Assembly: GCA_041652815.1 (NCBI GenBank)
Contig: JBAZGN010000001.1
Span: forward strand, 33,363-97,362
Source: Candidatus Omnitrophota bacterium
GTDB lineage: Bacteria > Omnitrophota > Gorgyraeia > Duberdicusellales > 4484-171
Direction of reading: 5' to 3'
Length of the DNA stretch: 64,000 bases
Position numbers and translations under genes: made by a program. Each line of letters begins with the position of its first letter. Within the stretch, counting starts at the first letter, position 1. Positions 12,024-31,142 of this stretch are shown in pieces. The notes beneath the pieces were generated by a model. It worked only from the letters and a program-made list of their open reading frames with translations, did no database searches and was not told the DNA's origin.

Positions 12024-12079
12024 ATTATATATTATACCTTATTTCGCAGGAAATTTCTACTCCAAGCGGAGTTTGCGGG

Positions 12080-13690: not shown

Positions 13691-13706
13691 TCGCCTCCCT
13701 TTGTTT

Positions 13707-14519
13707 TTATCGTTCTACAGGAATCTCTTCCTGCTTAGCGCCTTTATAAATTTCTATGGTCGGGGGTTTTTCCTGCGGAATAGTGCGCTGTATTAATCCC
13801 AATTTATTTAAAAGCCCCTCGAGCGTAAGTGCGGAATATTCGGGCTCTCCGGCTTTATCCAAAGGCGTCCTTAATACCAGGCGTATTTTGCCAAGCTCAA
13901 GCGAATACGTCAGCAATTTTGTACCATCCGGGTCAAGCGCAAGCGTAATTGTATCGGCTTTTCCTTCTGCCCGGTAAGGAGACAGATTTTTGTTGGTGGC
14001 AAGGACTTTTACGTTTTGAAAAAGCGTAATTACAATAGGTGGGCTTGCTCCTTTTTCGGCAGGAAAGCTGAATGTACCTATAATATCAACTATATCTCCC
14101 GGCTTAATCAACCCCTCTACCGCAGAAAGTTTATCTACGGAAATAGTAATTGCGCGTTTACCTTCAGGAACGGCGTCAGAAAGGTATTTAAAACCAATTA
14201 ACGGCTTAACTGCTTCACTGTTTAAATGCTGGTCTTTTAAAACATCTGTTATGGCAAACTTTCCTATAACTGAATCAACTGACGTTAAATCGCCGGGCTG
14301 TAAAGTTTTCGAAGCAACAGTGGCGAGTTTTACCATATCCGAAGTAATTGTGGTTTCTCTTGCGATATCTTCTTTTGCCACAACAACCTCAACCAATTGC
14401 CCTTTCTTAATAAGTTCCTGGATAAGCCGTTCTCGTGTTTGCATCTGGGCGTTTATAACGATGATAGCAATAATTGCAATACCTACGCCGATTAATAAGT
14501 TCACGATCCTTTTATCCAT
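13707..14519 (-). CDS. cpaB: CpaB/RcpC-like Flp pilus assembly protein
   Basis: N-terminal TM helix, SAF-like domain; first gene of the cpaB-cpaC-ATPase order. Confidence 0.7.
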   Translation of the reverse strand: MDKRIVNLLIGVGIAIIAIIVINAQMQTRERLIQELIKKGQLVEVVVAKEDIARETTITSDMVKLATVASKTLQPGDLTSVDSVIGKFAITDVLKDQHLNSEAVKPLIGFKYLSDAVPEGKRAITISVDKLSAVEGLIKPGDIVDIIGTFSFPAEKGASPPIVITLFQNVKVLATNKNLSPYRAEGKADTITLALDPDGTKLLTYSLELGKIRLVLRTPLDKAGEPEYSALTLEGLLNKLGLIQRTIPQEKPPTIEIYKGAKQEEIPVER

Positions 14520-14535
14520 TTACACTCCTTATTTT

Positions 14536-14627
14536 TAGAAGCGGATTACCGCGGATGTTTACGCGGATTTACGCACGGTAATTTGCTTGCGTTTATCCGC
14601 GTTTAGATCCGCGGATATCCGCTTCTA
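14536..14627. repeat. 'gcggat' palindromic element, complete copy without cargo (arm1 tagaagcggattaccgcggatgtttacgcggat; arm2 atccgcgtttagatccgcggatatccgcttcta)
   Basis: Two inverted arms about 35 bp each separated by about 25 bp; the same arms recur at 20843-20885/21282-21320, 27536-27578/27975-28013 and 32673-32847. Confidence 0.75.
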
Positions 14628-15515
14628 TTTTAACAAATCTTCTGATTTTTCTACGCGCGCTTTCGCCTTAAAACTTTCGATTAATTTATTAACCTCTTGT
14701 TCGGTTTTGTCTTCCCGCAATGCGTCTTCAAGTTTTTTCTCTACGTCAGCGAAAGAAACCTCTCCACCGCCCTTTGCTTCTTCAACTTTTATTATATAAT
14801 ATTTGCCGTCATCGGCCTTGAAATAATTTGACAATCTTCCCGGCTCAACCGTAGCAATAGCTGCCCAAAATTTTGCGTTTTTTTGCAAATCTTCAAGCGA
14901 GGGAGTTAGCCAGCCGCGGTCTCCCCCCTTATCCCTGGAAGGCGCAACAGATTCCTGGCGGGCTATTTTCTCAAAATCTTCGCCCGTGAGTAACCTAACA
15001 TAAATATTCTTTGCATCAGCCTCGGAATTTACTGCTATTTCTCTAATCTTTATTTGGCGCGGTTCTTTAAAAAATTCCTTGTTTTTATCGTAAAAAGCGC
15101 GGACTTCTGCGTACGAAACGGTTACGCTTTTTTCTATATCTTTTCTAATTTTTGCCGCAAGCAGCGTGTCGCGCGTATCCCTCAATGCCCTTGCGATATC
15201 ATCACTTTTATCAATTCCTTTTTCTGTAGCTATTTGAGCCAGTATTTGGTTCTTGATAAGGTCGTTAAGAAACTTAATTTTGAAGTCTGTGCTGTTTACG
15301 TTTATGTTTTGCTGGGTAGCTATTGGCTCTATGCTTCTTAAATAATTTTTAAAATCGTCCAAGCCTATCGCCCAACTATTTACTCTGGCGAGCAGCGCGC
15401 CGTGAATAGCCACTTCTTCATTTGTTTCGGCTGGCTTCGGCGGAAAAACTTTATCACAGCCGATAAAAACTGCGATAAGAAATATAAGTGTAACAACTGG
15501 AAACGCCTTACGCAT
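14625..15515 (-). CDS. PrsA/SurA-like parvulin-type peptidyl-prolyl isomerase lipoprotein
   Basis: Lipobox-like FIGC; PpiC-type motif region IKIREIAV...ESVAPSRDKGGDRGWL. Confidence 0.6.
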   Translation of the reverse strand: MRKAFPVVTLIFLIAVFIGCDKVFPPKPAETNEEVAIHGALLARVNSWAIGLDDFKNYLRSIEPIATQQNINVNSTDFKIKFLNDLIKNQILAQIATEKGIDKSDDIARALRDTRDTLLAAKIRKDIEKSVTVSYAEVRAFYDKNKEFFKEPRQIKIREIAVNSEADAKNIYVRLLTGEDFEKIARQESVAPSRDKGGDRGWLTPSLEDLQKNAKFWAAIATVEPGRLSNYFKADDGKYYIIKVEEAKGGGEVSFADVEKKLEDALREDKTEQEVNKLIESFKAKARVEKSEDLLK

Positions 15516-15840
15516 TGAACCTCCTCTATAGTTATAAGTTTATCAATATAACCTTATTAAATCAAGATTTTTTTTAAAAATAAATCCGGCCAGGAAACTC
15601 ATCCCGTTTAGAGATTTATTCCTAACAGGATAAGCTGCATAATTTTTATCGTTGCCTTTGGGGCAAATTTAGTTTAGAATATAGCAATGAACCCAGCCCT
15701 TCCAAGGTGTTATACTTATCCAAACAGTATAGTAAATTTGTTAGGAACAAGGCTGGTTAGTTTAGGCTGCAAAAATAATTTTCAGAAATTTACCGTTTGA
15801 AATAATTCATAAAACACTACTCGAAAAAAGGAAGGGCTGG

Positions 15841-16425
15841 GTGAAAAAACCAGTAAAGATAACTCTCGATACCAGTATTTTCGTAAATCCCGATTCAAGA
15901 GTATTTTTTGGCCAAACCCCGGAGAATGCTTTGAAAAATTTTCTGGAAAAGCTGGAAAAACAAAATGATGTTTCCTGCTATATGCCTCCATCGGTTTATG
16001 AAGAACTGATGAAGTTTATGGAAAACAAACCCTCGCTCAAAGAAACGCTTCTTATCCAGAAGAAGCCGCCGGCCTCTTATGAAACGCCAATTCCTTCTAT
16101 ATTTCTGTATGAATTTATTGAAGAATTCCGGGCAAGAATAAATAAAGGCTTACGCATTGCCGAAAAATACGCAAGGCAGGAACTAAAAATAACGCCGCCG
16201 AAAGAAAAAACAGAAGAAGAAATAATAAAACGTTTAAGAGAAGAATACCGAGTGGCTCTTCGGGAAGGCATTATTGACAGTAAGGAAGATTTCGACCTTC
16301 TGCTTTTAGCTCGTGAGCTTGGCTCATTTCTAGCTACCTCAGACCAGGGCCTTGTAAAATGGGCACAAAAACTAGGCATACCCGCGCTATCCGCCGAGGA
16401 ACTAAAAGAAATTCTGGAGCATTAA
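15841..16425 (+). CDS. PIN-like protein resembling the HARP family (protein-only minimal RNase P, Aq_880-like)
   Basis: N-terminus ITLDTSIFVNP..., central YMPPSVYEEL, FLYEFIEEFRARINKGLRIAEK, C-terminal LATSDQGL; 194 aa, the size of HARP proteins. GTG start. Confidence 0.5.
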   Translation: MKKPVKITLDTSIFVNPDSRVFFGQTPENALKNFLEKLEKQNDVSCYMPPSVYEELMKFMENKPSLKETLLIQKKPPASYETPIPSIFLYEFIEEFRARINKGLRIAEKYARQELKITPPKEKTEEEIIKRLREEYRVALREGIIDSKEDFDLLLLARELGSFLATSDQGLVKWAQKLGIPALSAEELKEILEH

Positions 16426-16449
16426 ACATCGGCCTTCTTTTTTAATAAT

Positions 16450-18402
16450 ATGAAAAGCTATAAATTGACGCCTTTTTTTTCGACAACCGAAATAAATTAC
16501 GAAGAAAACCTAAACCCACAACAGTTAAAAGTCGTAAAAGAAGCTGACGGCCCTTCGCTTGTATTAGCAGGAGCAGGAAGCGGTAAAACCCGTGTGCTGA
16601 TTTACAGGCTTGCCTATTTACTCCAAAAAGGAGTTCCAGCCGAAAATATACTGCTTGTAACTTTTACAAACAAAGCTTCCAAAGAAATGATTCACCGGGC
16701 TGAAGTGCTCCTTAAATCAAGTTTATCCGGGCTTTGGGCTGGGACATTTCATCATGCCGGAAATATGATTTTAAGGCACGAGGCGCAAACTATAGGGTAC
16801 TCTGCAAACTTCACTATTATAGACAGGGAAGATTCAAAAGATTTGCTTGAGGATTGTATAGAAGAATTAGGTTATACAAAAGACGCAAAACTTTTTCCCA
16901 AAAAAGATATCATCTCAAATATTTACAGCATTTGCGTAAACTCGCTCAAGAAAGTAGAAGATGTAATTTGCGAAACCTACCCTCACATCGAGGAATATTC
17001 ATCTCATATCAAAAAAGTCCTTGCGCGGTATGAACAAAAGAAAAAACAAAGCAACACCATGGACTTTAATGATTTACTTAAATATTGGCTGGAAATTCTT
17101 AAGATAGACGCGCTTTGCAAAAAATATTCCGGAAATTTCAAATACATACTCGTTGATGAATATCAGGATACAAATCATATTCAGTTTGAAATAATCAAGC
17201 GCCTGGCATCAATCCATAAAAACATATTGGTCGTCGGAGACGACGCACAATCAATATATTCTTTTAGGGGCGCTGACATAAATAACCTTTTGGATTTTCC
17301 AAAAACTTTTGAAGGCGCAAAAATTTACAAGCTTGAAATAAATTATAGGTCTTCACCGCAAATTCTTTCATTAGCAAATAATATAATCACGCATAACATA
17401 AACCAGTTCCCCAAAGCCTTAAAGGCAGTTAAGGGCGCGGCGGAAAAACCACAAGCAGTAAAAACAAAAGATGTTTACGCGCAGGCAAAATTCGTAGCTC
17501 AGAAAGCGCTGGAACTGCACAACCAAGGCATACCGCTTCGCGAAATAGCCGTACTCTTTCGTTCGCACTTTCAGGTGTTGGAGCTGGAAATAGAACTAAT
17601 GAAAAGAAACATCCCCTATATTATGCGCGGTGGTGTGCGCTTCTTCGAACAGGCACACATAAAAGATGTTATGTCTTATCTTAAAATAATAAATAACCCC
17701 AATGATGAATTATCGTTTAAACGGGCGGTTTCGTTATATAAAGGAATAGGCAGAAGTTATGCTACAAAAATATGGAAAATGGTAGTTACCGAAAAAAAAT
17801 CCATAGATGAGGTGATAAAGGCGCTTCCCAAAAGACAGCAACAGGGCTTTCGTGAGTTTTCAAAAGTATTTGAAAAAATCAGGACTATTGAAAAACCCCA
17901 AAATGCCGTAAGAGAAATTTTATCTTTCTATAAAGACTACTGCTATCTTTCATTCGATAATCCCGACGACAGAATCCTTGACCTGGAAGAACTTGCAAAA
18001 ATGGCAGCGGATTATCCTACCGTAAGAAGGTTTCTTACTGAATTAAGTTCATTTGAAGAATTTAAAGGCGAGTCAATGCTGTCGGCAAACGAAAAAAGAG
18101 AATTCCTTACGCTTTCAACAATACATCAGGCAAAAGGCCTTGAGTGGGAAGCTGTATTTATCGTAGGCTTTAGCGATTATGAATTCCCCCATCCTAAAGC
18201 GCTGGGAAAAGACGAAGCCCTTGAAGAAGAAAGAAGGCTCTTTTACGTTGCAACCACAAGGGCTAAACAAGTGCTTTACATAACCTATCCGGAAGCAAAA
18301 TATACTTTTAAAAACGGGGTTATAATCTGCCGGCCGTCGATGTTCCTTAATGAAATACCCTTCTCGAATTACGAAGAGATGTATGTTGAGGATGATTTTT
18401 GA
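16450..18402 (+). CDS. UvrD/PcrA/Rep-family SF1 DNA helicase
   Basis: Motifs AGAGSGKT, TFTNKASKEM, VDEYQDTN, VGDDAQSIYSFRGA, TIHQAKGLEW, VATTRAKQVLY. Confidence 0.8.
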   Translation: MKSYKLTPFFSTTEINYEENLNPQQLKVVKEADGPSLVLAGAGSGKTRVLIYRLAYLLQKGVPAENILLVTFTNKASKEMIHRAEVLLKSSLSGLWAGTFHHAGNMILRHEAQTIGYSANFTIIDREDSKDLLEDCIEELGYTKDAKLFPKKDIISNIYSICVNSLKKVEDVICETYPHIEEYSSHIKKVLARYEQKKKQSNTMDFNDLLKYWLEILKIDALCKKYSGNFKYILVDEYQDTNHIQFEIIKRLASIHKNILVVGDDAQSIYSFRGADINNLLDFPKTFEGAKIYKLEINYRSSPQILSLANNIITHNINQFPKALKAVKGAAEKPQAVKTKDVYAQAKFVAQKALELHNQGIPLREIAVLFRSHFQVLELEIELMKRNIPYIMRGGVRFFEQAHIKDVMSYLKIINNPNDELSFKRAVSLYKGIGRSYATKIWKMVVTEKKSIDEVIKALPKRQQQGFREFSKVFEKIRTIEKPQNAVREILSFYKDYCYLSFDNPDDRILDLEELAKMAADYPTVRRFLTELSSFEEFKGESMLSANEKREFLTLSTIHQAKGLEWEAVFIVGFSDYEFPHPKALGKDEALEEERRLFYVATTRAKQVLYITYPEAKYTFKNGVIICRPSMFLNEIPFSNYEEMYVEDDF

Positions 18403-18878
18403 GAAGAAGAATCCAGGCTAAAAATATCCAGAATAACATCCGTATTGTTTGAATCTTCAAAAACCAATTCCATTTCAATATCAACAATATCTTCTTTGGC
18501 TGCGTCAATTCGGCCTTTATTTATAATAGGTAACAACGAAAATGCGGCAATTATGACTAAAGTAACAACGGCAATCTGCGGCCTGTAGGCTAAGGCAGAT
18601 ATCATGCCTTGTACGATAAAAACTATTCTTTCCATCAGGCTAGAAATAACCGATACTGGCTGAGTTTGCGTTTCTATTTGTTTTAAAATATCATTTAAGC
18701 TATCGCGCGAAATATCCACTTTTTCTTTTTCTGCAATACAAAGGAATTTATTTAAGCTTTCATAATTTTTGCTGCAGCGGCTGCAATGCAAAAAATGTTC
18801 TTCGATAGGCTTTCTTTCTTCTCCCTTTATTTCGTTATAGAAAAACAATAGCATTTGTTTCTTTGAAAGGCATTTCAT
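18369..18878 (-). CDS. Zinc-dependent (ZAS-type) anti-sigma factor with one TM helix
   Basis: HFLHCSRCSKNY contains HxxxCxxC; TM segment VTLVIIAAFSLLPI. Start taken at MKCLSKK (GGAGG RBS); directly downstream of the ECF sigma gene. Confidence 0.55.
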   Translation of the reverse strand: MKCLSKKQMLLFFYNEIKGEERKPIEEHFLHCSRCSKNYESLNKFLCIAEKEKVDISRDSLNDILKQIETQTQPVSVISSLMERIVFIVQGMISALAYRPQIAVVTLVIIAAFSLLPIINKGRIDAAKEDIVDIEMELVFEDSNNTDVILDIFSLDSSSQKSSSTYISS

Positions 18879-18945
18879 GATATAACCTCCATTAATGAGC
18901 ACATCATTTTTTCAAGTGTATCAACACGTAGAAAAAATGATAGTG

Positions 18946-19064
18946 CGAATTAACCCCCCACCACTTTTAGTGATGAGTAGTTTTTGTAAAACATTTCTTT
19001 TCTCTAAAACCAACCGCGTCTTACAACAAGATGCTTTCTAAAAGTGGTGGGGGGGTCGAATTCG
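18946..19064. repeat. Inverted repeat with 24-27 bp arms (cgaattaaccccccaccacttttag / ctaaaagtggtgggggggtcgaattcg) and a 67-bp spacer, between the sigma and anti-sigma genes
   Basis: Read directly from sequence; a duplicate copy sits at 25639-25757. Confidence 0.7.
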
Positions 19065-19107
19065 GCTACGCAAATTTTCTGCGCTTCTGGCTTGAAAATT
19101 TGCTGCC

Positions 19108-19659
19108 TCATTCGACCTCCATCTTTTTCTGCAAGGCGCCTACGGCTCGTTTTAAATGTGTCTTTACTGCGCTCTGAGAGCAGCCTATCGCGTTACTTAT
19201 CTCTGCCATGCTTAGCCCCTCATAGTGCCTTAATATAAATACATTTTTTTGCCTGGCCGGCAAATTTGAAATTTCTTTTCTTAATAATGCCTGCCTGTCT
19301 TTAAGGTCTAACTCTTCTTTCAAAGAAGCATTTTCAATTTTTGGCTCGCTTTTATATCTTGTGCCAAGATTAAATATACTGCGGCGCCGGCGTAAAAAAT
19401 CCAACGAAGTATTTATGCTTATCCGATAAATCCAGGTAGAAAGCTTTGAAGCATTTTTAAAATATTTAAGGCCGTTATGTATTTTTAAAAGCGAAACCTG
19501 CAAGGCGTCTTTTGCATCTTCCATATTTGCCAAATAACGGTAAGAAATATTTAGAATATCCGAATATATAAGCTTTGCCAGTTCAGAAAAGGCACTACTC
19601 TCACCGCCTATAAAACTATCCGCCAGCTTTTTTATATCTTCCTCTTTATGTTTAAGCAC
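19108..19659 (-). CDS. ECF (sigma-70 family group IV) RNA polymerase sigma factor
   Basis: Region 2 and region 4 features; C-terminal HTH LSMAEISNAIGCSQSAVKTHLKRA. Confidence 0.75.
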   Translation of the reverse strand: MLKHKEEDIKKLADSFIGGESSAFSELAKLIYSDILNISYRYLANMEDAKDALQVSLLKIHNGLKYFKNASKLSTWIYRISINTSLDFLRRRRSIFNLGTRYKSEPKIENASLKEELDLKDRQALLRKEISNLPARQKNVFILRHYEGLSMAEISNAIGCSQSAVKTHLKRAVGALQKKMEVE

Positions 19660-19667
19660 GTTTTATT

Positions 19668-20150
19668 TTATAAATTGTTTTCCATTGAACGATTCTTTCT
19701 GCGGTCTTGAATTCTATTTTTAAGCTCTTCATATTTCTGCGGGTCGTTTTCTTTAAGATAATTAAGCCGCTCTTTAAGATGCTCTCTTCTTTTGGCTTTT
19801 AACTCTTCATATTTTTGGGGATTGTTTTTCTTAAGTTCCGCAAGGCGGCTTCTTATCTTCGTTCTTGCCTCCTGTATCAGAGCTTTAAACTTTTCCGGGT
19901 CATTTTTTTCCAGAGCTTCAAGCTCTTGTTTTTTTGCAACAAGCTTTTCTTTTAAAATAGCTTTAAACTTTTCTTTATCGGTTTTTCTAAGCTCAATAAG
20001 CTCTTTTTTCTCGCTTTCCGGAAGCGCTTCAAAAACCAAAACTCTGGCTATTGCTTTTTCCCGGAAAGTATTTTTAGCATAAACGCTGTTTCCAAGAATA
20101 AAGATAACCATAAACAGAACCAGACAGATTCCAAAATATCTGATTTTCAT
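19668..20150 (-). CDS. Secreted coiled-coil repeat protein (periplasmic stress-protein-like)
   Basis: Signal peptide, then charged repeats (ENDPQKYEELK, KNDPEKFKALI, KNNPQKYEELK); immediately upstream of the ECF sigma gene in the same operon. Confidence 0.4.
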   Translation of the reverse strand: MKIRYFGICLVLFMVIFILGNSVYAKNTFREKAIARVLVFEALPESEKKELIELRKTDKEKFKAILKEKLVAKKQELEALEKNDPEKFKALIQEARTKIRSRLAELKKNNPQKYEELKAKRREHLKERLNYLKENDPQKYEELKNRIQDRRKNRSMENNL

Positions 20151-20199
20151 ACTATCACCTCGAATATTTAGACGGTTTAAAAGCGTAAAAAGTCTACCC

Positions 20200-20270
20200 C
20201 GTTACAGATAACAGAGTACAGAATACAGAATAATTTTTTATTTCTTCTCTGTTCTCTGTATCTATCGCGA
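20200..20270. repeat. Palindrome of 'acagagtacagaataca / tctctgttctctgtatct' units at the folE 3' end; duplicate copy at 26893-26963
   Basis: Read directly from sequence. Confidence 0.6.
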
Positions 20271-20822
20271 AGTAGAAATTAAGCTTAAAGCTTCCTGGCG
20301 GGTCTTTTGGTTTGTAAGAAAGATTCCCCTGACAACGGAAGTTGTAGTTAATGTCCCCGGTTTCTTCACCCCGCGCATTGACATGCAAAGATGCTCCGCT
20401 TCAATAACTACCATTACGCCTTTTGGTTTTAGTTTTTTCATAATTACATCGGCTACTTCTGTAGTTAAACGTTCCTGCACCTGAAGGCGCTTTGAAAGGA
20501 CATCCACAACCCTTGCTATTTTGCTTAAACCGGTTATGCGCTTATCGGGAATATAGGCAACGTGCGCTTTTCCTATAAAGGGAAGCATGTGGTGCTCGCA
20601 CATCGAATATAACGGTATTCCCTTCAAAAGTATAATTTCATCGTGCTTTTGCTCAAGGATAACTTCCAACTCTTCTTCTGCGTCCTTGAACTGCCCGCTT
20701 AAAATTTCTCCATACATTTCAGCTACCCGCGCAGGCGTTATCGCGATATCTTTCTTTGTTAAATCTGCGCCGAGTGCTTCCAAAATAAGCTTAACGCCTT
20801 GTTCGATTTTTTTCTTATCCAT
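20262..20822 (-). CDS. folE: GTP cyclohydrolase I
   Basis: CEHHMLPFIGKAHVAYIP, GLSKIARVV, RLQVQERLT, AEHLCMSMRGVKK; start taken at MDKKKIEQ (AGGAG RBS). The longer ORF extends into the palindromic element. Confidence 0.85.
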   Translation of the reverse strand: MDKKKIEQGVKLILEALGADLTKKDIAITPARVAEMYGEILSGQFKDAEEELEVILEQKHDEIILLKGIPLYSMCEHHMLPFIGKAHVAYIPDKRITGLSKIARVVDVLSKRLQVQERLTTEVADVIMKKLKPKGVMVVIEAEHLCMSMRGVKKPGTLTTTSVVRGIFLTNQKTRQEALSLISTSR

Positions 20823-20865
20823 CTTTTTGTACTCCTGTTTTATAGAAGCGGATTTCCGCGGATAT

Positions 20866-21273
20866 TTACGCGGATAGACACACGGCATTTAAACGCGCAA
20901 AGTCATAAACCCGTCTTACTATTTCAAGTTTTTTTGTACCAAAGTTTATTAAAAATCCTAACTTATAGTTAGAACCCCTTAGATAATACCAGAATTGTTT
21001 TTTATCTTCTTGAAGTAACATTGGTTTAACTTTAATCTCCATAATTATTTTATCATTTATTACAAAATCAGGAACATAGCTACCGACTTTTTCTCCTTTA
21101 TATAGAATATTAATTTGCTTTTGTTGTTCTACAGATAAATTTCTTTCCTTGAATTCTTTGACTAATGCTTTCTGAATTATTCCCTCCTTAAAAGCACTTC
21201 CGAAATGATTCCATACCTCAAAACATGCTCCTCTTATTTGATAAGATTCTTCTTCGTATAATAATTTACCCAT
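20866..21273 (-). CDS. GxxExxY-family small protein (PD-(D/E)XK-like fold family), nested between inverted arms of the gcggat element
   Basis: Conserved layout IRGACFEVWNHFGSAFKEG...YKGEKVGSYVPDFVINDKIIMEIKVKP...LGFLINFG typical of the GxxExxY family; flanked by arm1 (20843-20885) and arm2 (21282-21320). Confidence 0.6.
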   Translation of the reverse strand: MGKLLYEEESYQIRGACFEVWNHFGSAFKEGIIQKALVKEFKERNLSVEQQKQINILYKGEKVGSYVPDFVINDKIIMEIKVKPMLLQEDKKQFWYYLRGSNYKLGFLINFGTKKLEIVRRVYDFARLNAVCLSA

Positions 21274-21317
21274 ATTTCTGTGCGTTCATCCGCGTTTAGA
21301 TCCGCGGGAATCCGCTT

Positions 21318-22208
21318 CTATTTTAACAAATCTTCTGATTTTTCTACGCGCGCTTTCGCCTTAAAACTTTCGATTAATTTATTAACCTCTTGTTCGGTTT
21401 TGTCTTCCCGCAATGCGTCTTCAAGTTTTTTCTCTACGTCAGCGAAAGAAACCTCTCCACCGCCCTTTGCTTCTTCAACTTTTATTATATAATATTTGCC
21501 GTCATCGGCCTTGAAATAATTTGACAATCTTCCCGGCTCAACCGTAGCAATAGCTGCCCAAAATTTTGCGTTTTTTTGCAAATCTTCAAGCGAGGGAGTT
21601 AGCCAGCCGCGGTCTCCCCCCTTATCCCTGGAAGGCGCAACAGATTCCTGGCGGGCTATTTTCTCAAAATCTTCGCCCGTGAGTAACCTAACATAAATAT
21701 TCTTTGCATCAGCCTCGGAATTTACTGCTATTTCTCTAATCTTTATTTGGCGCGGTTCTTTAAAAAATTCCTTGTTTTTATCGTAAAAAGCGCGGACTTC
21801 TGCGTACGAAACGGTTACGCTTTTTTCTATATCTTTTCTAATTTTTGCCGCAAGCAGCGTGTCGCGCGTATCCCTCAATGCCCTTGCGATATCATCACTT
21901 TTATCAATTCCTTTTTCTGTAGCTATTTGAGCCAGTATTTGGTTCTTGATAAGGTCGTTAAGAAACTTAATTTTGAAGTCTGTGCTGTTTACGTTTATGT
22001 TTTGCTGGGTAGCTATTGGCTCTATGCTTCTTAAATAATTTTTAAAATCGTCCAAGCCTATCGCCCAACTATTTACTCTGGCGAGCAGCGCGCCGTGAAT
22101 AGCCACTTCTTCATTTGTTTCGGCTGGCTTCGGCGGAAAAACTTTATCACAGCCGATAAAAACTGCGATAAGAAATATAAGTGTAACAACTGGAAACGCC
22201 TTACGCAT
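21318..22208 (-). CDS. PrsA/SurA-like PPIase (duplicate copy)
   Basis: Identical translation to 14625..15515. Confidence 0.6.
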   Translation of the reverse strand: MRKAFPVVTLIFLIAVFIGCDKVFPPKPAETNEEVAIHGALLARVNSWAIGLDDFKNYLRSIEPIATQQNINVNSTDFKIKFLNDLIKNQILAQIATEKGIDKSDDIARALRDTRDTLLAAKIRKDIEKSVTVSYAEVRAFYDKNKEFFKEPRQIKIREIAVNSEADAKNIYVRLLTGEDFEKIARQESVAPSRDKGGDRGWLTPSLEDLQKNAKFWAAIATVEPGRLSNYFKADDGKYYIIKVEEAKGGGEVSFADVEKKLEDALREDKTEQEVNKLIESFKAKARVEKSEDLLK

Positions 22209-22533
22209 TGAACCTCCTCTATAGTTATAAGTTTATCAATATAACCTTATTAAATCAAGATTTTTTTTAAAAATAAATCCGGCCAGGAAACTCATCCCGT
22301 TTAGAGATTTATTCCTAACAGGATAAGCTGCATAATTTTTATCGTTGCCTTTGGGGCAAATTTAGTTTAGAATATAGCAATGAACCCAGCCCTTCCAAGG
22401 TGTTATACTTATCCAAACAGTATAGTAAATTTGTTAGGAACAAGGCTGGTTAGTTTAGGCTGCAAAAATAATTTTCAGAAATTTACCGTTTGAAATAATT
22501 CATAAAACACTACTCGAAAAAAGGAAGGGCTGG

Positions 22534-23118
22534 GTGAAAAAACCAGTAAAGATAACTCTCGATACCAGTATTTTCGTAAATCCCGATTCAAGAGTATTTT
22601 TTGGCCAAACCCCGGAGAATGCTTTGAAAAATTTTCTGGAAAAGCTGGAAAAACAAAATGATGTTTCCTGCTATATGCCTCCATCGGTTTATGAAGAACT
22701 GATGAAGTTTATGGAAAACAAACCCTCGCTCAAAGAAACGCTTCTTATCCAGAAGAAGCCGCCGGCCTCTTATGAAACGCCAATTCCTTCTATATTTCTG
22801 TATGAATTTATTGAAGAATTCCGGGCAAGAATAAATAAAGGCTTACGCATTGCCGAAAAATACGCAAGGCAGGAACTAAAAATAACGCCGCCGAAAGAAA
22901 AAACAGAAGAAGAAATAATAAAACGTTTAAGAGAAGAATACCGAGTGGCTCTTCGGGAAGGCATTATTGACAGTAAGGAAGATTTCGACCTTCTGCTTTT
23001 AGCTCGTGAGCTTGGCTCATTTCTAGCTACCTCAGACCAGGGCCTTGTAAAATGGGCACAAAAACTAGGCATACCCGCGCTATCCGCCGAGGAACTAAAA
23101 GAAATTCTGGAGCATTAA
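22534..23118 (+). CDS. HARP-like PIN protein (duplicate copy)
   Basis: Identical translation to 15841..16425. Confidence 0.5.
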   Translation: MKKPVKITLDTSIFVNPDSRVFFGQTPENALKNFLEKLEKQNDVSCYMPPSVYEELMKFMENKPSLKETLLIQKKPPASYETPIPSIFLYEFIEEFRARINKGLRIAEKYARQELKITPPKEKTEEEIIKRLREEYRVALREGIIDSKEDFDLLLLARELGSFLATSDQGLVKWAQKLGIPALSAEELKEILEH

Positions 23119-23142
23119 ACATCGGCCTTCTTTTTTAATAAT

Positions 23143-25095
23143 ATGAAAAGCTATAAATTGACGCCTTTTTTTTCGACAACCGAAATAAATTACGAAGAAA
23201 ACCTAAACCCACAACAGTTAAAAGTCGTAAAAGAAGCTGACGGCCCTTCGCTTGTATTAGCAGGAGCAGGAAGCGGTAAAACCCGTGTGCTGATTTACAG
23301 GCTTGCCTATTTACTCCAAAAAGGAGTTCCAGCCGAAAATATACTGCTTGTAACTTTTACAAACAAAGCTTCCAAAGAAATGATTCACCGGGCTGAAGTG
23401 CTCCTTAAATCAAGTTTATCCGGGCTTTGGGCTGGGACATTTCATCATGCCGGAAATATGATTTTAAGGCACGAGGCGCAAACTATAGGGTACTCTGCAA
23501 ACTTCACTATTATAGACAGGGAAGATTCAAAAGATTTGCTTGAGGATTGTATAGAAGAATTAGGTTATACAAAAGACGCAAAACTTTTTCCCAAAAAAGA
23601 TATCATCTCAAATATTTACAGCATTTGCGTAAACTCGCTCAAGAAAGTAGAAGATGTAATTTGCGAAACCTACCCTCACATCGAGGAATATTCATCTCAT
23701 ATCAAAAAAGTCCTTGCGCGGTATGAACAAAAGAAAAAACAAAGCAACACCATGGACTTTAATGATTTACTTAAATATTGGCTGGAAATTCTTAAGATAG
23801 ACGCGCTTTGCAAAAAATATTCCGGAAATTTCAAATACATACTCGTTGATGAATATCAGGATACAAATCATATTCAGTTTGAAATAATCAAGCGCCTGGC
23901 ATCAATCCATAAAAACATATTGGTCGTCGGAGACGACGCACAATCAATATATTCTTTTAGGGGCGCTGACATAAATAACCTTTTGGATTTTCCAAAAACT
24001 TTTGAAGGCGCAAAAATTTACAAGCTTGAAATAAATTATAGGTCTTCACCGCAAATTCTTTCATTAGCAAATAATATAATCACGCATAACATAAACCAGT
24101 TCCCCAAAGCCTTAAAGGCAGTTAAGGGCGCGGCGGAAAAACCACAAGCAGTAAAAACAAAAGATGTTTACGCGCAGGCAAAATTCGTAGCTCAGAAAGC
24201 GCTGGAACTGCACAACCAAGGCATACCGCTTCGCGAAATAGCCGTACTCTTTCGTTCGCACTTTCAGGTGTTGGAGCTGGAAATAGAACTAATGAAAAGA
24301 AACATCCCCTATATTATGCGCGGTGGTGTGCGCTTCTTCGAACAGGCACACATAAAAGATGTTATGTCTTATCTTAAAATAATAAATAACCCCAATGATG
24401 AATTATCGTTTAAACGGGCGGTTTCGTTATATAAAGGAATAGGCAGAAGTTATGCTACAAAAATATGGAAAATGGTAGTTACCGAAAAAAAATCCATAGA
24501 TGAGGTGATAAAGGCGCTTCCCAAAAGACAGCAACAGGGCTTTCGTGAGTTTTCAAAAGTATTTGAAAAAATCAGGACTATTGAAAAACCCCAAAATGCC
24601 GTAAGAGAAATTTTATCTTTCTATAAAGACTACTGCTATCTTTCATTCGATAATCCCGACGACAGAATCCTTGACCTGGAAGAACTTGCAAAAATGGCAG
24701 CGGATTATCCTACCGTAAGAAGGTTTCTTACTGAATTAAGTTCATTTGAAGAATTTAAAGGCGAGTCAATGCTGTCGGCAAACGAAAAAAGAGAATTCCT
24801 TACGCTTTCAACAATACATCAGGCAAAAGGCCTTGAGTGGGAAGCTGTATTTATCGTAGGCTTTAGCGATTATGAATTCCCCCATCCTAAAGCGCTGGGA
24901 AAAGACGAAGCCCTTGAAGAAGAAAGAAGGCTCTTTTACGTTGCAACCACAAGGGCTAAACAAGTGCTTTACATAACCTATCCGGAAGCAAAATATACTT
25001 TTAAAAACGGGGTTATAATCTGCCGGCCGTCGATGTTCCTTAATGAAATACCCTTCTCGAATTACGAAGAGATGTATGTTGAGGATGATTTTTGA
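23143..25095 (+). CDS. UvrD-family helicase (duplicate copy)
   Basis: Identical translation to 16450..18402. Confidence 0.8.
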   Translation: MKSYKLTPFFSTTEINYEENLNPQQLKVVKEADGPSLVLAGAGSGKTRVLIYRLAYLLQKGVPAENILLVTFTNKASKEMIHRAEVLLKSSLSGLWAGTFHHAGNMILRHEAQTIGYSANFTIIDREDSKDLLEDCIEELGYTKDAKLFPKKDIISNIYSICVNSLKKVEDVICETYPHIEEYSSHIKKVLARYEQKKKQSNTMDFNDLLKYWLEILKIDALCKKYSGNFKYILVDEYQDTNHIQFEIIKRLASIHKNILVVGDDAQSIYSFRGADINNLLDFPKTFEGAKIYKLEINYRSSPQILSLANNIITHNINQFPKALKAVKGAAEKPQAVKTKDVYAQAKFVAQKALELHNQGIPLREIAVLFRSHFQVLELEIELMKRNIPYIMRGGVRFFEQAHIKDVMSYLKIINNPNDELSFKRAVSLYKGIGRSYATKIWKMVVTEKKSIDEVIKALPKRQQQGFREFSKVFEKIRTIEKPQNAVREILSFYKDYCYLSFDNPDDRILDLEELAKMAADYPTVRRFLTELSSFEEFKGESMLSANEKREFLTLSTIHQAKGLEWEAVFIVGFSDYEFPHPKALGKDEALEEERRLFYVATTRAKQVLYITYPEAKYTFKNGVIICRPSMFLNEIPFSNYEEMYVEDDF

Positions 25096-25571
25096 GAAGA
25101 AGAATCCAGGCTAAAAATATCCAGAATAACATCCGTATTGTTTGAATCTTCAAAAACCAATTCCATTTCAATATCAACAATATCTTCTTTGGCTGCGTCA
25201 ATTCGGCCTTTATTTATAATAGGTAACAACGAAAATGCGGCAATTATGACTAAAGTAACAACGGCAATCTGCGGCCTGTAGGCTAAGGCAGATATCATGC
25301 CTTGTACGATAAAAACTATTCTTTCCATCAGGCTAGAAATAACCGATACTGGCTGAGTTTGCGTTTCTATTTGTTTTAAAATATCATTTAAGCTATCGCG
25401 CGAAATATCCACTTTTTCTTTTTCTGCAATACAAAGGAATTTATTTAAGCTTTCATAATTTTTGCTGCAGCGGCTGCAATGCAAAAAATGTTCTTCGATA
25501 GGCTTTCTTTCTTCTCCCTTTATTTCGTTATAGAAAAACAATAGCATTTGTTTCTTTGAAAGGCATTTCAT
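25062..25571 (-). CDS. ZAS-type anti-sigma factor (duplicate copy)
   Basis: Identical translation to 18369..18878. Confidence 0.55.
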   Translation of the reverse strand: MKCLSKKQMLLFFYNEIKGEERKPIEEHFLHCSRCSKNYESLNKFLCIAEKEKVDISRDSLNDILKQIETQTQPVSVISSLMERIVFIVQGMISALAYRPQIAVVTLVIIAAFSLLPIINKGRIDAAKEDIVDIEMELVFEDSNNTDVILDIFSLDSSSQKSSSTYISS

Positions 25572-25800
25572 GATATAACCTCCATTAATGAGCACATCAT
25601 TTTTTCAAGTGTATCAACACGTAGAAAAAATGATAGTGCGAATTAACCCCCCACCACTTTTAGTGATGAGTAGTTTTTGTAAAACATTTCTTTTCTCTAA
25701 AACCAACCGCGTCTTACAACAAGATGCTTTCTAAAAGTGGTGGGGGGGTCGAATTCGGCTACGCAAATTTTCTGCGCTTCTGGCTTGAAAATTTGCTGCC

Positions 25801-26352
25801 TCATTCGACCTCCATCTTTTTCTGCAAGGCGCCTACGGCTCGTTTTAAATGTGTCTTTACTGCGCTCTGAGAGCAGCCTATCGCGTTACTTATCTCTGCC
25901 ATGCTTAGCCCCTCATAGTGCCTTAATATAAATACATTTTTTTGCCTGGCCGGCAAATTTGAAATTTCTTTTCTTAATAATGCCTGCCTGTCTTTAAGGT
26001 CTAACTCTTCTTTCAAAGAAGCATTTTCAATTTTTGGCTCGCTTTTATATCTTGTGCCAAGATTAAATATACTGCGGCGCCGGCGTAAAAAATCCAACGA
26101 AGTATTTATGCTTATCCGATAAATCCAGGTAGAAAGCTTTGAAGCATTTTTAAAATATTTAAGGCCGTTATGTATTTTTAAAAGCGAAACCTGCAAGGCG
26201 TCTTTTGCATCTTCCATATTTGCCAAATAACGGTAAGAAATATTTAGAATATCCGAATATATAAGCTTTGCCAGTTCAGAAAAGGCACTACTCTCACCGC
26301 CTATAAAACTATCCGCCAGCTTTTTTATATCTTCCTCTTTATGTTTAAGCAC
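25801..26352 (-). CDS. ECF sigma factor (duplicate copy)
   Basis: Identical translation to 19108..19659. Confidence 0.75.
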   Translation of the reverse strand: MLKHKEEDIKKLADSFIGGESSAFSELAKLIYSDILNISYRYLANMEDAKDALQVSLLKIHNGLKYFKNASKLSTWIYRISINTSLDFLRRRRSIFNLGTRYKSEPKIENASLKEELDLKDRQALLRKEISNLPARQKNVFILRHYEGLSMAEISNAIGCSQSAVKTHLKRAVGALQKKMEVE

Positions 26353-26360
26353 GTTTTATT

Positions 26361-26843
26361 TTATAAATTGTTTTCCATTGAACGATTCTTTCTGCGGTCT
26401 TGAATTCTATTTTTAAGCTCTTCATATTTCTGCGGGTCGTTTTCTTTAAGATAATTAAGCCGCTCTTTAAGATGCTCTCTTCTTTTGGCTTTTAACTCTT
26501 CATATTTTTGGGGATTGTTTTTCTTAAGTTCCGCAAGGCGGCTTCTTATCTTCGTTCTTGCCTCCTGTATCAGAGCTTTAAACTTTTCCGGGTCATTTTT
26601 TTCCAGAGCTTCAAGCTCTTGTTTTTTTGCAACAAGCTTTTCTTTTAAAATAGCTTTAAACTTTTCTTTATCGGTTTTTCTAAGCTCAATAAGCTCTTTT
26701 TTCTCGCTTTCCGGAAGCGCTTCAAAAACCAAAACTCTGGCTATTGCTTTTTCCCGGAAAGTATTTTTAGCATAAACGCTGTTTCCAAGAATAAAGATAA
26801 CCATAAACAGAACCAGACAGATTCCAAAATATCTGATTTTCAT
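26361..26843 (-). CDS. Secreted coiled-coil repeat protein (duplicate copy)
   Basis: Identical translation to 19668..20150. Confidence 0.4.
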   Translation of the reverse strand: MKIRYFGICLVLFMVIFILGNSVYAKNTFREKAIARVLVFEALPESEKKELIELRKTDKEKFKAILKEKLVAKKQELEALEKNDPEKFKALIQEARTKIRSRLAELKKNNPQKYEELKAKRREHLKERLNYLKENDPQKYEELKNRIQDRRKNRSMENNL

Positions 26844-26954
26844 ACTATCACCTCGAATATTTAGACGGTTTAAAAGCGTAAAAAGTCTACCCCGTTACAG
26901 ATAACAGAGTACAGAATACAGAATAATTTTTTATTTCTTCTCTGTTCTCTGTAT

Positions 26955-27515
26955 CTATCGCGAAGTAGAAATTAAGCTTAAAGCTTCCTGGCGGGTCTTT
27001 TGGTTTGTAAGAAAGATTCCCCTGACAACGGAAGTTGTAGTTAATGTCCCCGGTTTCTTCACCCCGCGCATTGACATGCAAAGATGCTCCGCTTCAATAA
27101 CTACCATTACGCCTTTTGGTTTTAGTTTTTTCATAATTACATCGGCTACTTCTGTAGTTAAACGTTCCTGCACCTGAAGGCGCTTTGAAAGGACATCCAC
27201 AACCCTTGCTATTTTGCTTAAACCGGTTATGCGCTTATCGGGAATATAGGCAACGTGCGCTTTTCCTATAAAGGGAAGCATGTGGTGCTCGCACATCGAA
27301 TATAACGGTATTCCCTTCAAAAGTATAATTTCATCGTGCTTTTGCTCAAGGATAACTTCCAACTCTTCTTCTGCGTCCTTGAACTGCCCGCTTAAAATTT
27401 CTCCATACATTTCAGCTACCCGCGCAGGCGTTATCGCGATATCTTTCTTTGTTAAATCTGCGCCGAGTGCTTCCAAAATAAGCTTAACGCCTTGTTCGAT
27501 TTTTTTCTTATCCAT
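26955..27515 (-). CDS. folE: GTP cyclohydrolase I (duplicate copy)
   Basis: Identical translation to 20262..20822. Confidence 0.85.
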   Translation of the reverse strand: MDKKKIEQGVKLILEALGADLTKKDIAITPARVAEMYGEILSGQFKDAEEELEVILEQKHDEIILLKGIPLYSMCEHHMLPFIGKAHVAYIPDKRITGLSKIARVVDVLSKRLQVQERLTTEVADVIMKKLKPKGVMVVIEAEHLCMSMRGVKKPGTLTTTSVVRGIFLTNQKTRQEALSLISTSR

Positions 27516-27558
27516 CTTTTTGTACTCCTGTTTTATAGAAGCGGATTTCCGCGGATAT

Positions 27559-27966
27559 TTACGCGGATAGACACACGGCATTTAAACGCGCAAAGTCATA
27601 AACCCGTCTTACTATTTCAAGTTTTTTTGTACCAAAGTTTATTAAAAATCCTAACTTATAGTTAGAACCCCTTAGATAATACCAGAATTGTTTTTTATCT
27701 TCTTGAAGTAACATTGGTTTAACTTTAATCTCCATAATTATTTTATCATTTATTACAAAATCAGGAACATAGCTACCGACTTTTTCTCCTTTATATAGAA
27801 TATTAATTTGCTTTTGTTGTTCTACAGATAAATTTCTTTCCTTGAATTCTTTGACTAATGCTTTCTGAATTATTCCCTCCTTAAAAGCACTTCCGAAATG
27901 ATTCCATACCTCAAAACATGCTCCTCTTATTTGATAAGATTCTTCTTCGTATAATAATTTACCCAT
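27559..27966 (-). CDS. GxxExxY-family protein (duplicate copy)
   Basis: Identical translation to 20866..21273; flanked by arms at 27536-27578 and 27975-28013. Confidence 0.6.
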   Translation of the reverse strand: MGKLLYEEESYQIRGACFEVWNHFGSAFKEGIIQKALVKEFKERNLSVEQQKQINILYKGEKVGSYVPDFVINDKIIMEIKVKPMLLQEDKKQFWYYLRGSNYKLGFLINFGTKKLEIVRRVYDFARLNAVCLSA

Positions 27967-28010
27967 ATTTCTGTGCGTTCATCCGCGTTTAGATCCGCGG
28001 GAATCCGCTT

Positions 28011-29504
28011 CTATTTTCCAATACAAAACTGACTAAAAATATTCTCCAATAATTCTTCGCAAAATACTTCTCCAGTTAATTTCCCCAAATTATCCAAAGC
28101 ATTTTTTAAGGATAAATTTACTAAATCAACTTCCCGGCCTTGGCTTAAATATATTTGCGCTTCCTGAATATCTTTATATACGTCCTTGAGTATTTCGCTC
28201 TGATATTTATTAAGAAAAACCAAATCCTCTCTCTTGCTGCCAAATTGAGCTGCTACCTTAACTATAGCCTCTTCCAAATGCTCTATGCCTTCTTTTTTTA
28301 AAGCACTTAATTTTACCCTAAAACCTTTTAAGCGTGAAACATTTTTTAGATTGAGCTTTTGCTTTAAATCGCTTTTATTTATTATGATTATAATGCCCTT
28401 TACATTATCGGCTGCGTTATTATTCTTTTTATTATGTAAATTTTCGATTTTATTTAATAAAAACAGGTCGTCTTTTTCTAAATGCCTTGAGCCATCGAGC
28501 ACCAGCATAATCAAATCAGCTTCATTAAAAACTTTTGATGATTTTTCCAAGGCTTTTTTTTCGATAAAATTGCGGGGTGTTAAAATTCCGGCTGTATCAT
28601 AAATACACAAAGGTATTCCTTTTACATTTATGGTTTCTTCAATCGTGTCACGAGTGGTCCCGGGGATTTCGCTTACAATTACCCGCTCTTCCTGCAATAA
28701 ACAATTAAAAAGCGTGGATTTGCCGGCGTTGGTTTTTCCGCAGATAACACACCTTAGCCCGTCTTTTGCTACTTTTGATTTTTTATCCGCCTCCAAAATA
28801 TCTTTTATGTTTGCATCTATCTTTTTTATCTTATTTTTTATATTGTTAAATTCTATCGTAGTATTATCTTCGGGAAAATTAATATCCACTTCGGTTGATA
28901 AAAATACATCTTTTATCGCCTGTTTTACTTTATTAAATTTTTCAAATGATTCTCCTTTTAACTGGGAAACTGCGGTTTGCAAGGCTTTGTCGGTTTTTGC
29001 CTCGACTATATTACGTATGCCTTCAGCCTGTAGCAAGTCTATGCGGCCGTTTAAAAAAGCTCTATAGGTAAATTCGCCTGGCCGGGCGAGCCGGGCACCT
29101 TCTTTTAAGATTACATCTAAAATTTTACTAAGCGCAACTGTTCCACCGTGGGAAGAGATTTCAACCACATCTTCGCAAGTGTAGGAGCAGGGTTTTCTCA
29201 TTATGCTCACCAACACCTCATCAATTGCAACCTGGGACGTGGGACGTGAGACGTGAGACGTTTTATTCTTTACGCTATGCGCCATATGCTTTGCGCTATG
29301 CGATACAATCCATCCATAATGCAGAGTATAAGTTTTTGCGTTTCTTATGTCTTTTTTACGCCTGGGAATGAAAATTTTATGAATTATGCTTATAGCTTTT
29401 TTACCGGAAATTTTAACTACGCCTAGGGCGGATTTCGATGGAAAGGTTGCGATGGCAACGATTGTATCGTTAGTATTGTAATCCTTAAGTTTTATCAAGC
29501 TCAT
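28011..29504 (-). CDS. mnmE: tRNA modification GTPase MnmE/TrmE (with an in-frame repeat-derived insertion near the N-terminus)
   Basis: N-terminal DTIVAIATFP...VVKISG, G domain GKTNAGKSTLFNCLL...GTTRD, C-terminal ...FCIGK; insertion HMAHSVKNKTSHVSRPTSQ encoded by gacgtg repeats at 29235-29260. Confidence 0.85.
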   Translation of the reverse strand: MSLIKLKDYNTNDTIVAIATFPSKSALGVVKISGKKAISIIHKIFIPRRKKDIRNAKTYTLHYGWIVSHSAKHMAHSVKNKTSHVSRPTSQVAIDEVLVSIMRKPCSYTCEDVVEISSHGGTVALSKILDVILKEGARLARPGEFTYRAFLNGRIDLLQAEGIRNIVEAKTDKALQTAVSQLKGESFEKFNKVKQAIKDVFLSTEVDINFPEDNTTIEFNNIKNKIKKIDANIKDILEADKKSKVAKDGLRCVICGKTNAGKSTLFNCLLQEERVIVSEIPGTTRDTIEETINVKGIPLCIYDTAGILTPRNFIEKKALEKSSKVFNEADLIMLVLDGSRHLEKDDLFLLNKIENLHNKKNNNAADNVKGIIIIINKSDLKQKLNLKNVSRLKGFRVKLSALKKEGIEHLEEAIVKVAAQFGSKREDLVFLNKYQSEILKDVYKDIQEAQIYLSQGREVDLVNLSLKNALDNLGKLTGEVFCEELLENIFSQFCIGK

Positions 29505-29600
29505 AATTTAGCCAAATTAAACACTCCATAGATACTAGATGCTGGATACTGGATACTTGTTGTTTTTTACTAGCATATAAGATCAAGTATCTAGCATCTA
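29505..29600. repeat. Palindrome of 'gatact/agtatc' units (atactagatgctggatactggatacttg ... caagtatctagcatcta)
   Basis: Read directly; between folC and mnmE. Confidence 0.6.
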
Positions 29601-30983: not shown

Positions 30984-30997
30984 GTGTCTATGGTTTT

Positions 30998-31136
30998 ATA
31001 AATAACCAAGCTCCAATTTCCAATAACCAAATCCCAATAATCAAACGGGGGAATAAATAGAATTGCTTGGTAATTGGTTATTGGGTGTTAGGTATTGAAA
31101 TTTGTTTGGTTATTGTATCTTGGTTATTGGTTATTA
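30998..31136. repeat. Family A palindrome (aataaccaa/ttggttatt units), copy 2
   Basis: aaataaccaagctccaatttccaataaccaaatcccaataatcaaac ... ttggtaattggttattgggtgttaggtattgaaatttgtttggttattgtatcttggttattggttatt. Confidence 0.7.
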
Positions 31137-31142
31137 TATGAA

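Follow-up and report, generated by a model that had tools for sequence, protein, structure and literature searches.

The 64,000-nucleotide stretch analysed here (the window), from contig JBAZGN010000001.1 of a Candidatus Omnitrophota bacterium, contains two identical, directly repeated copies of a 6,693-bp segment of eight genes, joined within the arm of a GCGGAT hairpin element. We conclude, with a probability of roughly 0.8, that this is a genuine direct tandem duplication, carried by some members of a nearly clonal population, and that it arose by misaligned exchange between two copies of one hairpin arm (arm2). The duplication belongs to the class of tandem duplications mediated by repetitive extragenic palindromic (REP) elements, insertion sequences (IS) or rrn, and as an event it is of an ordinary, textbook kind. 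The repeat family at its junction is poorly known and has wider significance than the duplication itself.

Structure of the duplication

Comparison of the window with itself at an offset of 6,693 shows that positions 14617–21324 and 21310–28017 agree over 6,708 bp with 0 mismatches, giving a period of 6,693. Positions 14595–14614 likewise match at this offset and are parted from the main block by two mismatches at 14615–14616. There are 0 N bases in the window, and a perfect repeat of 6.7 kb is not attributable to chance. The original prediction had reported eight genes present twice with identical translations at the same offset, with identity bounded at 14617 and 28017 and unique sequence beyond, and the self-comparison bears out both statements. 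The architecture is repeat–unit–repeat–unit–repeat (R-D-R-D-R), with a 15-bp block, ATCCGCTTCTATTTT, present three times in relation to two hairpin elements, E1 and E2:

14617–21309: duplication copy 1, 6,693 bp, identical to 21310–28002
21310–28002: duplication copy 2, 6,693 bp, within the span (28958–21206) that contig L002 matches at 100%
14617–14631: block R1, ATCCGCTTCTATTTT, outer end of E1 arm2 and left boundary; unitigs L006 and L007 begin at 14617
21310–21324: block R2, junction and proposed crossover interval, with R-type arm2 interior (GGGA) to its left and the prsA 3′ end to its right
28003–28017: block R3, right boundary, beyond which lies unique mnmE sequence; end point of unitig L004 (28017/21324)

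Reads across the junction would contain ...GCGGGAATCCGCTTCTATTTTAACAAATC.... The duplicated segment is flanked by cpaB, a gene of the Flp/Tad pilus, on the left and by mnmE on the right. All eight open reading frames (ORFs) of the unit are intact in both copies, and no chimeric or fusion gene is present at the junction.

The junction and the parental allele in other assemblies

Contigs related to the window were found by exact-protein look-up and then aligned to it. Contig L001 (ENA ERZ27247363, assembled with MEGAHIT, 8,968 bp) corresponds end to end to the window minus copy 2 (12639–21309 joined to 28003–28299), with two differences within the unit and with the left and right arm2 variants both unchanged. 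Judged from its sequence, L001 is the parental single-copy R-D-R allele in a closely related strain. The single-copy arrangement is also seen in JGI metagenome 3300014205, which comes from leachate well LW3 of a municipal landfill in Southern Ontario (PMC9723747): contig L003 crosses the right boundary unbroken, and contig L005, which is 99.97% identical to the window with the left flank included, crosses the left boundary.

The junction itself recurs in a separate MEGAHIT assembly. Contig L002 (ENA ERZ27247358, 7,753 bp) is 100% identical to window positions 28958–21206 and extends from mnmE through a complete unit and the junction to 119 nt into the following unit. In the same assembly, contig L088 runs from the unit end into cpaB, and thus two different sequences follow the unit end in those data. 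Logan unitigs stop at the corresponding positions, with L004 (SRR6484325) ending exactly at 28017/21324 and L006 (SRR6484325) and L007 (SRR18595300) starting exactly at 14617/21310. We simulated de Bruijn graphs for a single-copy reference and for the duplicated sequence at k=31, which we take to be the Logan k-mer size. The single-copy graph had 0 branch nodes in 14000–29000, and the duplicated graph branched only at 14617/21310 and at the 31-mers ending at 21324/28017. Because the longest exact stretch common to the two arm contexts is at most 20 nt, this branch pattern implies that the Logan unitig ends require junction-containing reads. In addition, the identical GxxExxY protein encoded in the unit is listed twice for one NCBI metagenome-assembled genome (MAG), as MFA5304067 and MFA5304075, and the separation of these accessions by eight numbers fits an eight-gene repeat; another MAG has a single GxxExxY accession (MCK9614599.1). 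Taken together, these contigs, unitig ends and accessions indicate that three or more read sets contain DNA with the junction, and that genomes with one copy exist alongside genomes with the duplication. An exact-pattern scan of a metagenome contig collection for the left, junction and right boundaries gave no match; the collection evidently does not hold the relevant samples, because L003 and L005 do contain matching sequence.

The original prediction had allowed that the structure might be an assembly artefact, in which case the junction would exist in no DNA molecule. The source is a MAG, and perfectly identical long repeats are often a reason for suspicion. However, the junction is found at 100% identity in the separate assembly that contains L002, the ends of unitigs from two SRA runs also point to it, and the shared stretch of no more than 20 nt between the arm contexts means that assembly at k≥21 yields no spurious path across it. 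A pure assembly or scaffolding artefact is therefore extremely improbable and, in effect, ruled out.

Several points nonetheless weigh against a chromosomal tandem duplication. Outside the window's own assembly, the junction is supported by contigs and unitig ends rather than by read depth or single-molecule linkage. The de Bruijn graph is the same for a tandem duplication and for a single copy accompanied by an excised circle that carries the junction, and the identity of the copies and their count of two could both be obtained by an assembler's minimal traversal of a loop in the graph. The samples may all come from one site or from related sites, such that 'independent' describes the read sets and may not describe the populations.

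The equivalence of the graphs makes room for an alternative in which the chromosome is single-copy and the junction stems either from circles of 6.7 kb that were excised or from a minor subpopulation, the graph loop having been written out as tandem copies. Consistent with this alternative, single-copy contigs are present in other samples, and the overlap with the unit is only 119 nt for L002 and 107 nt for L088, both below k−1 = 140, which suggests that junction k-mers were sparse at k=141. However, the junction k-mers were plentiful enough to give branches or contigs in three read sets, whereas a non-replicating circle produced by a 15-bp exchange should be extremely rare, and the unit contains no replication or integration gene. 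A subpopulation with the duplication, moreover, would still be a real duplication. Because excised circles would be non-replicating and rare, we rate this explanation as improbable and favour a genuine tandem duplication.

Zero divergence between the copies had been read as a sign that the event is very recent. The recovered strains differ by about 2 single-nucleotide polymorphisms per unit, and a graph assembler writes both copies from one edge, so zero divergence is weak evidence of recency. Recency is better argued from the finding of both alleles, single-copy and duplicated, on backgrounds that otherwise hardly differ (99.97% identity for L005). A copy number above two is possible.

The strains also differ locally outside the junction. 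The pilus flank of L001 (12.6–14.0 kb, with the secretin and cpaB genes of the Tad/Flp system) is about 88% identical to the window and the adjacent unit more than 99.9% identical, and window positions 12639–14000 are a local hot spot of divergence or recombination between strains.

Proposed exchange between hairpin arms

The boundaries of the duplication lie in two of the GCGGAT elements of the window, which also contains a third such element:

14530–14631, minus strand: E1, a gene-less foldback hairpin between prsA and cpaB (arm1 14536–14585, arm2 14580–14631); minimum free energy −53.1 kcal/mol, z = −11.3
20838–21324, minus strand: E2 copy 1, comprising arm1 (20842–20883), a GxxExxY ORF and arm2 (21280–21321); the arms pair around the ORF, z = −5.3
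27531–28017, minus strand: E2 copy 2, at the parental position between mnmE and folE; the mnmE TAG stop codon (28011–28013) lies within the arm
32658–32847, minus strand: E3, the third such element, which carries no gene, has a loop of about 76 nt and takes no part in the duplication

E1 and E2 carry their arm2 sequences in direct orientation at a distance of 6.7 kb (repeat family D5). These sequences share perfect blocks of 20 bp and 15 bp, and their outer part agrees at 35/37 positions (14595–14631). Each copy of the unit had been described as ending in the same arm2 sequence; the arms at the junction and at the right-hand boundary are indeed identical, but the left-hand arm, that of E1, is only 81% identical over 53 nt. 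The left boundary reads ...CCGCGTTTAGATCCGCGGATATCCGCTTCTATTTTAACAAATC..., the junction ...CCGCGTTTAGATCCGCGGGAATCCGCTTCTATTTTAACAAATC... and the right boundary ...CCGCGTTTAGATCCGCGGGAATCCGCTTCTATTTTCCAATAC.... In the junction, the R-type interior (GGGA) is followed by the 15-bp block and then, as outer flank of L type, by AACAAATC, which is the prsA 3′ end. The junction is thus a hybrid that places the exchange within the 15-bp block ATCCGCTTCTATTTT. The earlier suggestion of recombination or slippage between direct copies of arm2 is upheld by this exact hybrid junction and by the parental R-D-R allele in L001, L003 and L005.

The parental order was cpaB, E1 hairpin, prsA ... folE, E2 (arm1, GxxExxY, arm2), mnmE. 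We propose that a misaligned exchange within the 15-bp block, the outermost of those shared, linked the end of one unit to the beginning of another. This could have happened by unequal crossing-over between sister chromatids, or by a switch of template when a nascent strand stalled at the foot of a hairpin. In the latter case the hairpin would be that of E1, which is very stable (−53 kcal/mol, z = −11.3) and at whose base a polymerase that runs into the palindrome may be expected to stall. The homology is too short and diverged for efficient RecA-mediated exchange, which slightly favours a RecA-independent template switch or misaligned re-annealing; we infer that such an event is somewhat more likely than a RecA crossover. 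In the scheme of the 'Tandem' tool, homologous recombination is called for at least 35 bp at ≥92% identity, and homologies of 5–25 bp are usually assigned to RecA-independent annealing or template switching (bioRxiv 10.64898/2026.05.22.727201). The outer arm match of 35/37 (94.6%) falls just inside the first range but the perfect tract is only 15 bp, within the second, so this case lies on the border between the two classes. The timing of the event, and any selective value of the doubled folE, extracytoplasmic function (ECF) sigma pair, uvrD and prsA, are matters that we can only infer.

Properties of the GCGGAT elements in the window

The arms follow the pattern TAGAAGCGGAT-nn-CCGCGGAT-nnnn-ACGCGGAT-nn-ACGCA and fold into helices of ~8 bp between symmetric internal loops. 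The window hairpins sit within strings of genes on the same strand and have fold z-scores of −5.3 to −11.3; E1 is a contiguous hairpin. Searches of Rfam at gathering thresholds assigned no family to any of these hairpins.

The TAG within the arm is the stop codon of the upstream gene for prsA (14625–14627) and mnmE, and also in loci L089 and L117, and the gene upstream of E3 stops at a TAA just before the arm. We considered whether the arm TAG serves generally as the stop codon of the upstream gene and rejected this idea, because it does so in 11/102 listed arms, the same as in a shifted control frame. Greater stability on the transcribed strand, the G-U signature of RNA-level selection, was not seen, 7 of 13 hairpins folding better as the antisense.

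Genes of the unit and chromosomal setting

A family profile search gave matches for 6 of the 8 ORFs in the unit, the exceptions being those of 177 and 160 residues:

14625–15515 (copy 2, 21318–22208), minus strand: prsA-like peptidyl-prolyl isomerase (Rotamase_2)
15841–16425 (copy 2, 22534–23118), plus strand: PIN_5 'RNA ligase partner' (TIGR03875, PF08745)
16450–18402 (copy 2, 23143–25095), plus strand: UvrD/PcrA-family helicase (family match)
18369–18902 (copy 2, 25062–25595), minus strand: 177-residue ORF, putative anti-sigma factor, no family match, downstream of the ECF sigma gene
19108–19659 (copy 2, 25801–26352), minus strand: ECF sigma factor (family match)
19668–20150 (copy 2, 26361–26843), minus strand: 160-residue ORF with 78-nt internal repeats (repeat family D4), no family match
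20262–20822 (copy 2, 26955–27515), minus strand: folE, GTP cyclohydrolase I, with a likely start at ATG 20822 preceded by a Shine–Dalgarno site
20866–21273, minus strand: GxxExxY/PDDEXK_3 ORF of 135 residues, in E2 copy 1 (TIGR04256, PF13366)

The 177-residue ORF is called as 169 residues on other contigs. The 160-residue ORF contains three 78-nt tandem repeats (19719–19913 and 26412–26606), and in the JGI contig L003 there are 23 differences clustered in these repeats, showing that the gene varies between strains. The GxxExxY ORF scores 111 bits against TIGR04256 (cut-off 35) and 112.9 bits against PF13366 (cut-off 22), and its product keeps a PD...ExK motif (VPDF...MEIK). By these matches it is a member of the GxxExxY/PDDEXK_3 family and a putative PD-(D/E)XK nuclease. 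A sequence search of the PDB found no relative of this protein.

The metagenomes are of landfill type, and the host is an uncultured Candidatus Omnitrophota bacterium. Identical proteins are annotated at NCBI as those of Candidatus Omnitrophica/Omnitrophota MAGs, and the closest species-representative genomes are Candidatus Omnitrophota MAGs, with the best UvrD match being 65% identical (L008). Nearly all genes in the window are on the minus strand, and the plus-strand GC skew is uniformly about −0.10. The GC content of the unit is 37.9%, compared with 38.6% for the whole window, and the adjacency of mnmE and folE is kept in another Omnitrophota genome (L009). The duplicated segment is thus ordinary chromosome and not a foreign island. 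We rejected the idea that the unit is a plasmid or mobile island on the same grounds of matching GC and conserved mnmE–folE synteny, together with its lack of a replication or integration gene. In L009 (18564–20544) the two genes are only 83 nt apart and no GxxExxY gene lies between them; the E2 cassette of the window is therefore an insertion into an ancestrally empty site.

A dispersed family of hairpin cassettes

Homologues of the GxxExxY gene occur on four other Omnitrophota contigs in different host-gene contexts and with the same flanking arms. The homology of locus L117 to the window extends only over 20838–21320, which is exactly arm, gene and arm. We scanned metagenomes for the arm pattern, which has 21 specified bases and by a rough estimate should give fewer than one chance match, and found it at a minimum of 112 loci. 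Among the matches listed, there are 35 gene-less hairpins (with a modal length of about 90 nt), 8 elements that flank a GxxExxY ORF and many single arms; 64 arms have no recognisable partner. Two of the single ('half') arms, at about 8776–8830 in L099 and about 9336–9364 in L120, continue the reading frame of an opposite-strand Mur-ligase-like host gene and appear to encode C-terminal residues of its product.

In locus L100, a GCGGAT hairpin (11865–11961, minus strand) lies inside a bacterial large-subunit (LSU) rRNA gene (9115–12180, minus strand), about 220 nt from the 5′ end. The GCGGAT element at this position is thus a 23S rRNA intervening sequence (IVS).

A hidden Markov model built from 120 GxxExxY homologues found 17 distinct GxxExxY ORFs with usable flanks in the collected loci. 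Flanking inverted repeats with scores of at least 38 were present for 14 of the 17, compared with 1.06% of 568 size-matched control ORFs. GxxExxY genes within the loops of inverted word arrays are seen in several phyla (L089, L092, L095, L096, L112, L117, L118, L125 and L126; further loci are L132, L144, L150, L175, L195, L200, L025 and L045). The repeated word changes with the clade of the GxxExxY protein:

GCGGAT or GCTGAT: close homologues
CGCAGAAC: L118
ACACGGAT or ACACAGAT: L195
CACAGAT: L045, Chthoniobacterales
TACAAAT: L144
GGAAAGCAGGAA: L025, Verrucomicrobiae

This covariation of word and clade suggests that the GxxExxY protein may recognise its own arms. On the evidence of the arms and their contexts, we interpret the junction repeat as the arm of a dispersed foldback cassette that resembles an IVS, an arm also found in gene-less derivatives of the cassette, which resemble miniature inverted-repeat transposable elements (MITEs). 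In the searchable literature we found no description of these hairpins or of the cassette architecture, which may have been described elsewhere.

The association of word and protein raises the possibility that the duplication was a site-specific event driven by the element itself. In such an event the GxxExxY nuclease, or another factor acting on the arms, would cut the outer edge of arm2, and the ends, being in direct orientation, would be joined directly or by way of a circle that re-inserts. In favour of this, the crossover falls at the edge of the arm, in its outermost 15 bp; of the two elements that recombined, one carries a gene whose product has the PD...ExK motif intact; and GxxExxY genes are found consistently between inverted arrays of a word that varies with the protein clade. 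However, plain homology-driven exchange predicts a crossover at such a site, this interval being among the two longest stretches of perfect identity between the arms, and no second rearrangement with the same breakpoint was seen. Moreover, no nuclease activity or mobility mechanism is known for the GxxExxY family, whose function is listed as unknown (PMC3424549). We therefore give an element-driven origin only a small chance, and regard misaligned exchange between the arm2 copies as the better account of the junction.

A broader proposal, which we consider unlikely, is that these are undescribed selfish cassettes, each a GxxExxY nuclease gene within a foldback hairpin of words that its own product recognises, and that they spread, leave gene-less hairpins behind and, through cleavage or stalling at the arms, drive local rearrangements that include the 6.7-kb duplication. 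Such cassettes would have spread to the intergenic spacers and rRNA of Omnitrophota, Verrucomicrobiota and bacteria resembling the candidate phyla radiation. The architecture of the cassettes and the covariation of word with clade are observed features, whereas recognition, mobility and a causal role in rearrangement are putative.

Other word arrays and hairpins were noted in the course of this analysis. Genes of the 23S_rRNA_IVP family, which encode four-helix-bundle proteins, adjoin GxxExxY genes on two other Omnitrophota contigs (L089, 1167–1721; L095, 1093–1500) and have word arrays of their own (CCCTTATCAA and GGGACGT), with modest inverted-repeat scores of 23–24. Most intergenic spacers in the window's string of same-strand genes contain a long imperfect hairpin built on one 6–8-nt word. 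The word is repeated three to five times per arm with a period of about 10–12 nt and differs between elements (AATAACC, GAAACC, ACAGAG, GTATCC, GTTACG, AATTTC, GTAACA, CACAGAT and others). These hairpins are located at 8522–8693, 9762–9857, 20151–20261, 29505–29597, 30984–31142, 33538–33672, 38327–38629, 41873–41983, 43181–43308, 52173–52245, 52460–52607, 55217–55364 and 62824–62932, the CACAGAT word hairpin, at 62840–62932, being gene-less. The three that were tested have fold z-scores of −6.5 to −7.0, and the spacer hairpins have no Rfam match. Three other Omnitrophota loci of 22 kb each contain zero or one word hairpin. Two 84-nt copies of a hairpin-type element (43181–43264 and 54906–54989) are 86% complementary and inverted, 11.6 kb apart, and are a potential substrate for inversion. 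Elsewhere in the window, a c-di-GMP-I riboswitch (RF01051, 42.9 bits) lies at 6702–6809 on the minus strand, in the large spacer upstream of a pilin-like gene cluster.

Relationship to known systems and significance

Tandem duplications joined at REP elements have reportedly been described in Salmonella and E. coli (by Shyamala, Schneider and Ames in 1990, with a review by Reams and Roth in 2015). Like them, the duplication described here is joined within short, dispersed, intergenic imperfect palindromes in direct orientation, has the R-D-R-D-R structure, leaves its genes intact and is polymorphic within the population, instability being a trait of the known kind. It also resembles amplifications at IS, rrn or microhomology in having a direct repeat at both outer boundaries and at the inner junction. 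The REP cases differ in that they come from laboratory selection rather than from an uncultured Omnitrophota host in natural metagenomes, and the repeat itself is also different, being a hairpin of ~90–100 nt with a 6-nt word three or four times per arm and a relationship to a gene-carrying cassette.

REP units are short palindromes of 20–40 nt with a conserved GTAG head, arranged as inverted doublets, and the REP-associated tyrosine transposase (RAYT) is the cognate IS200/IS605-like Y1 enzyme. The GCGGAT arms are arrays of three or four words rather than single REP palindromes, and they have no conserved GTAG head: TAGAAGC is preceded by G in 48 and by A in 48 of the 111 arms among the matches listed, and by A or T in the window. 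No RAYT or Y1 transposase was found among the scanned ORFs of the 64-kb window. By the features tested, this does not appear to be a REP/RAYT system.

The elements have more in common with two other kinds of repeat. Some IVS carry an ORF of the 23S_rRNA_IVP four-helix-bundle family in the loop, and the extended stem-loops of IVS are excised by RNase III. The likeness to IVS lies in the GCGGAT hairpin inside the LSU rRNA gene of L100, in the position of the E2 ORF in a hairpin loop, and in the presence of 23S_rRNA_IVP genes beside GxxExxY genes in other Omnitrophota loci. In contrast to IVS, the elements of the window lie between protein-coding operon genes and not in rRNA, and their ORF encodes a PD-(D/E)XK protein. 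MITEs, hairpin-forming REP doublets (REPINs) and foldback elements are non-autonomous hairpin derivatives of a gene-carrying parent. Similarly, gene-less GCGGAT hairpins far outnumber gene-bearing ones (35 against 8 among the matches listed), homology ends exactly at the arm ends in L117, and short repeats make up the arms, a trait shared with foldback transposons. However, there is no transposase and no target-site duplication, and transposition of the GCGGAT elements is putative.

In summary, a near-clonal population of uncultured Omnitrophota contains both the parental and the duplicated allele, with the breakpoint resolved to 15 bp, making this a clean natural example of a duplication at dispersed hairpin repeats and of how such repeats shape gene dosage, here that of folE, the ECF sigma pair, uvrD and prsA, in the wild. 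If confirmed, the cassette architecture would provide a testable hypothesis for the widespread orphan GxxExxY/PDDEXK_3 family and for the origin of the unusually dense intergenic hairpins of this genome.

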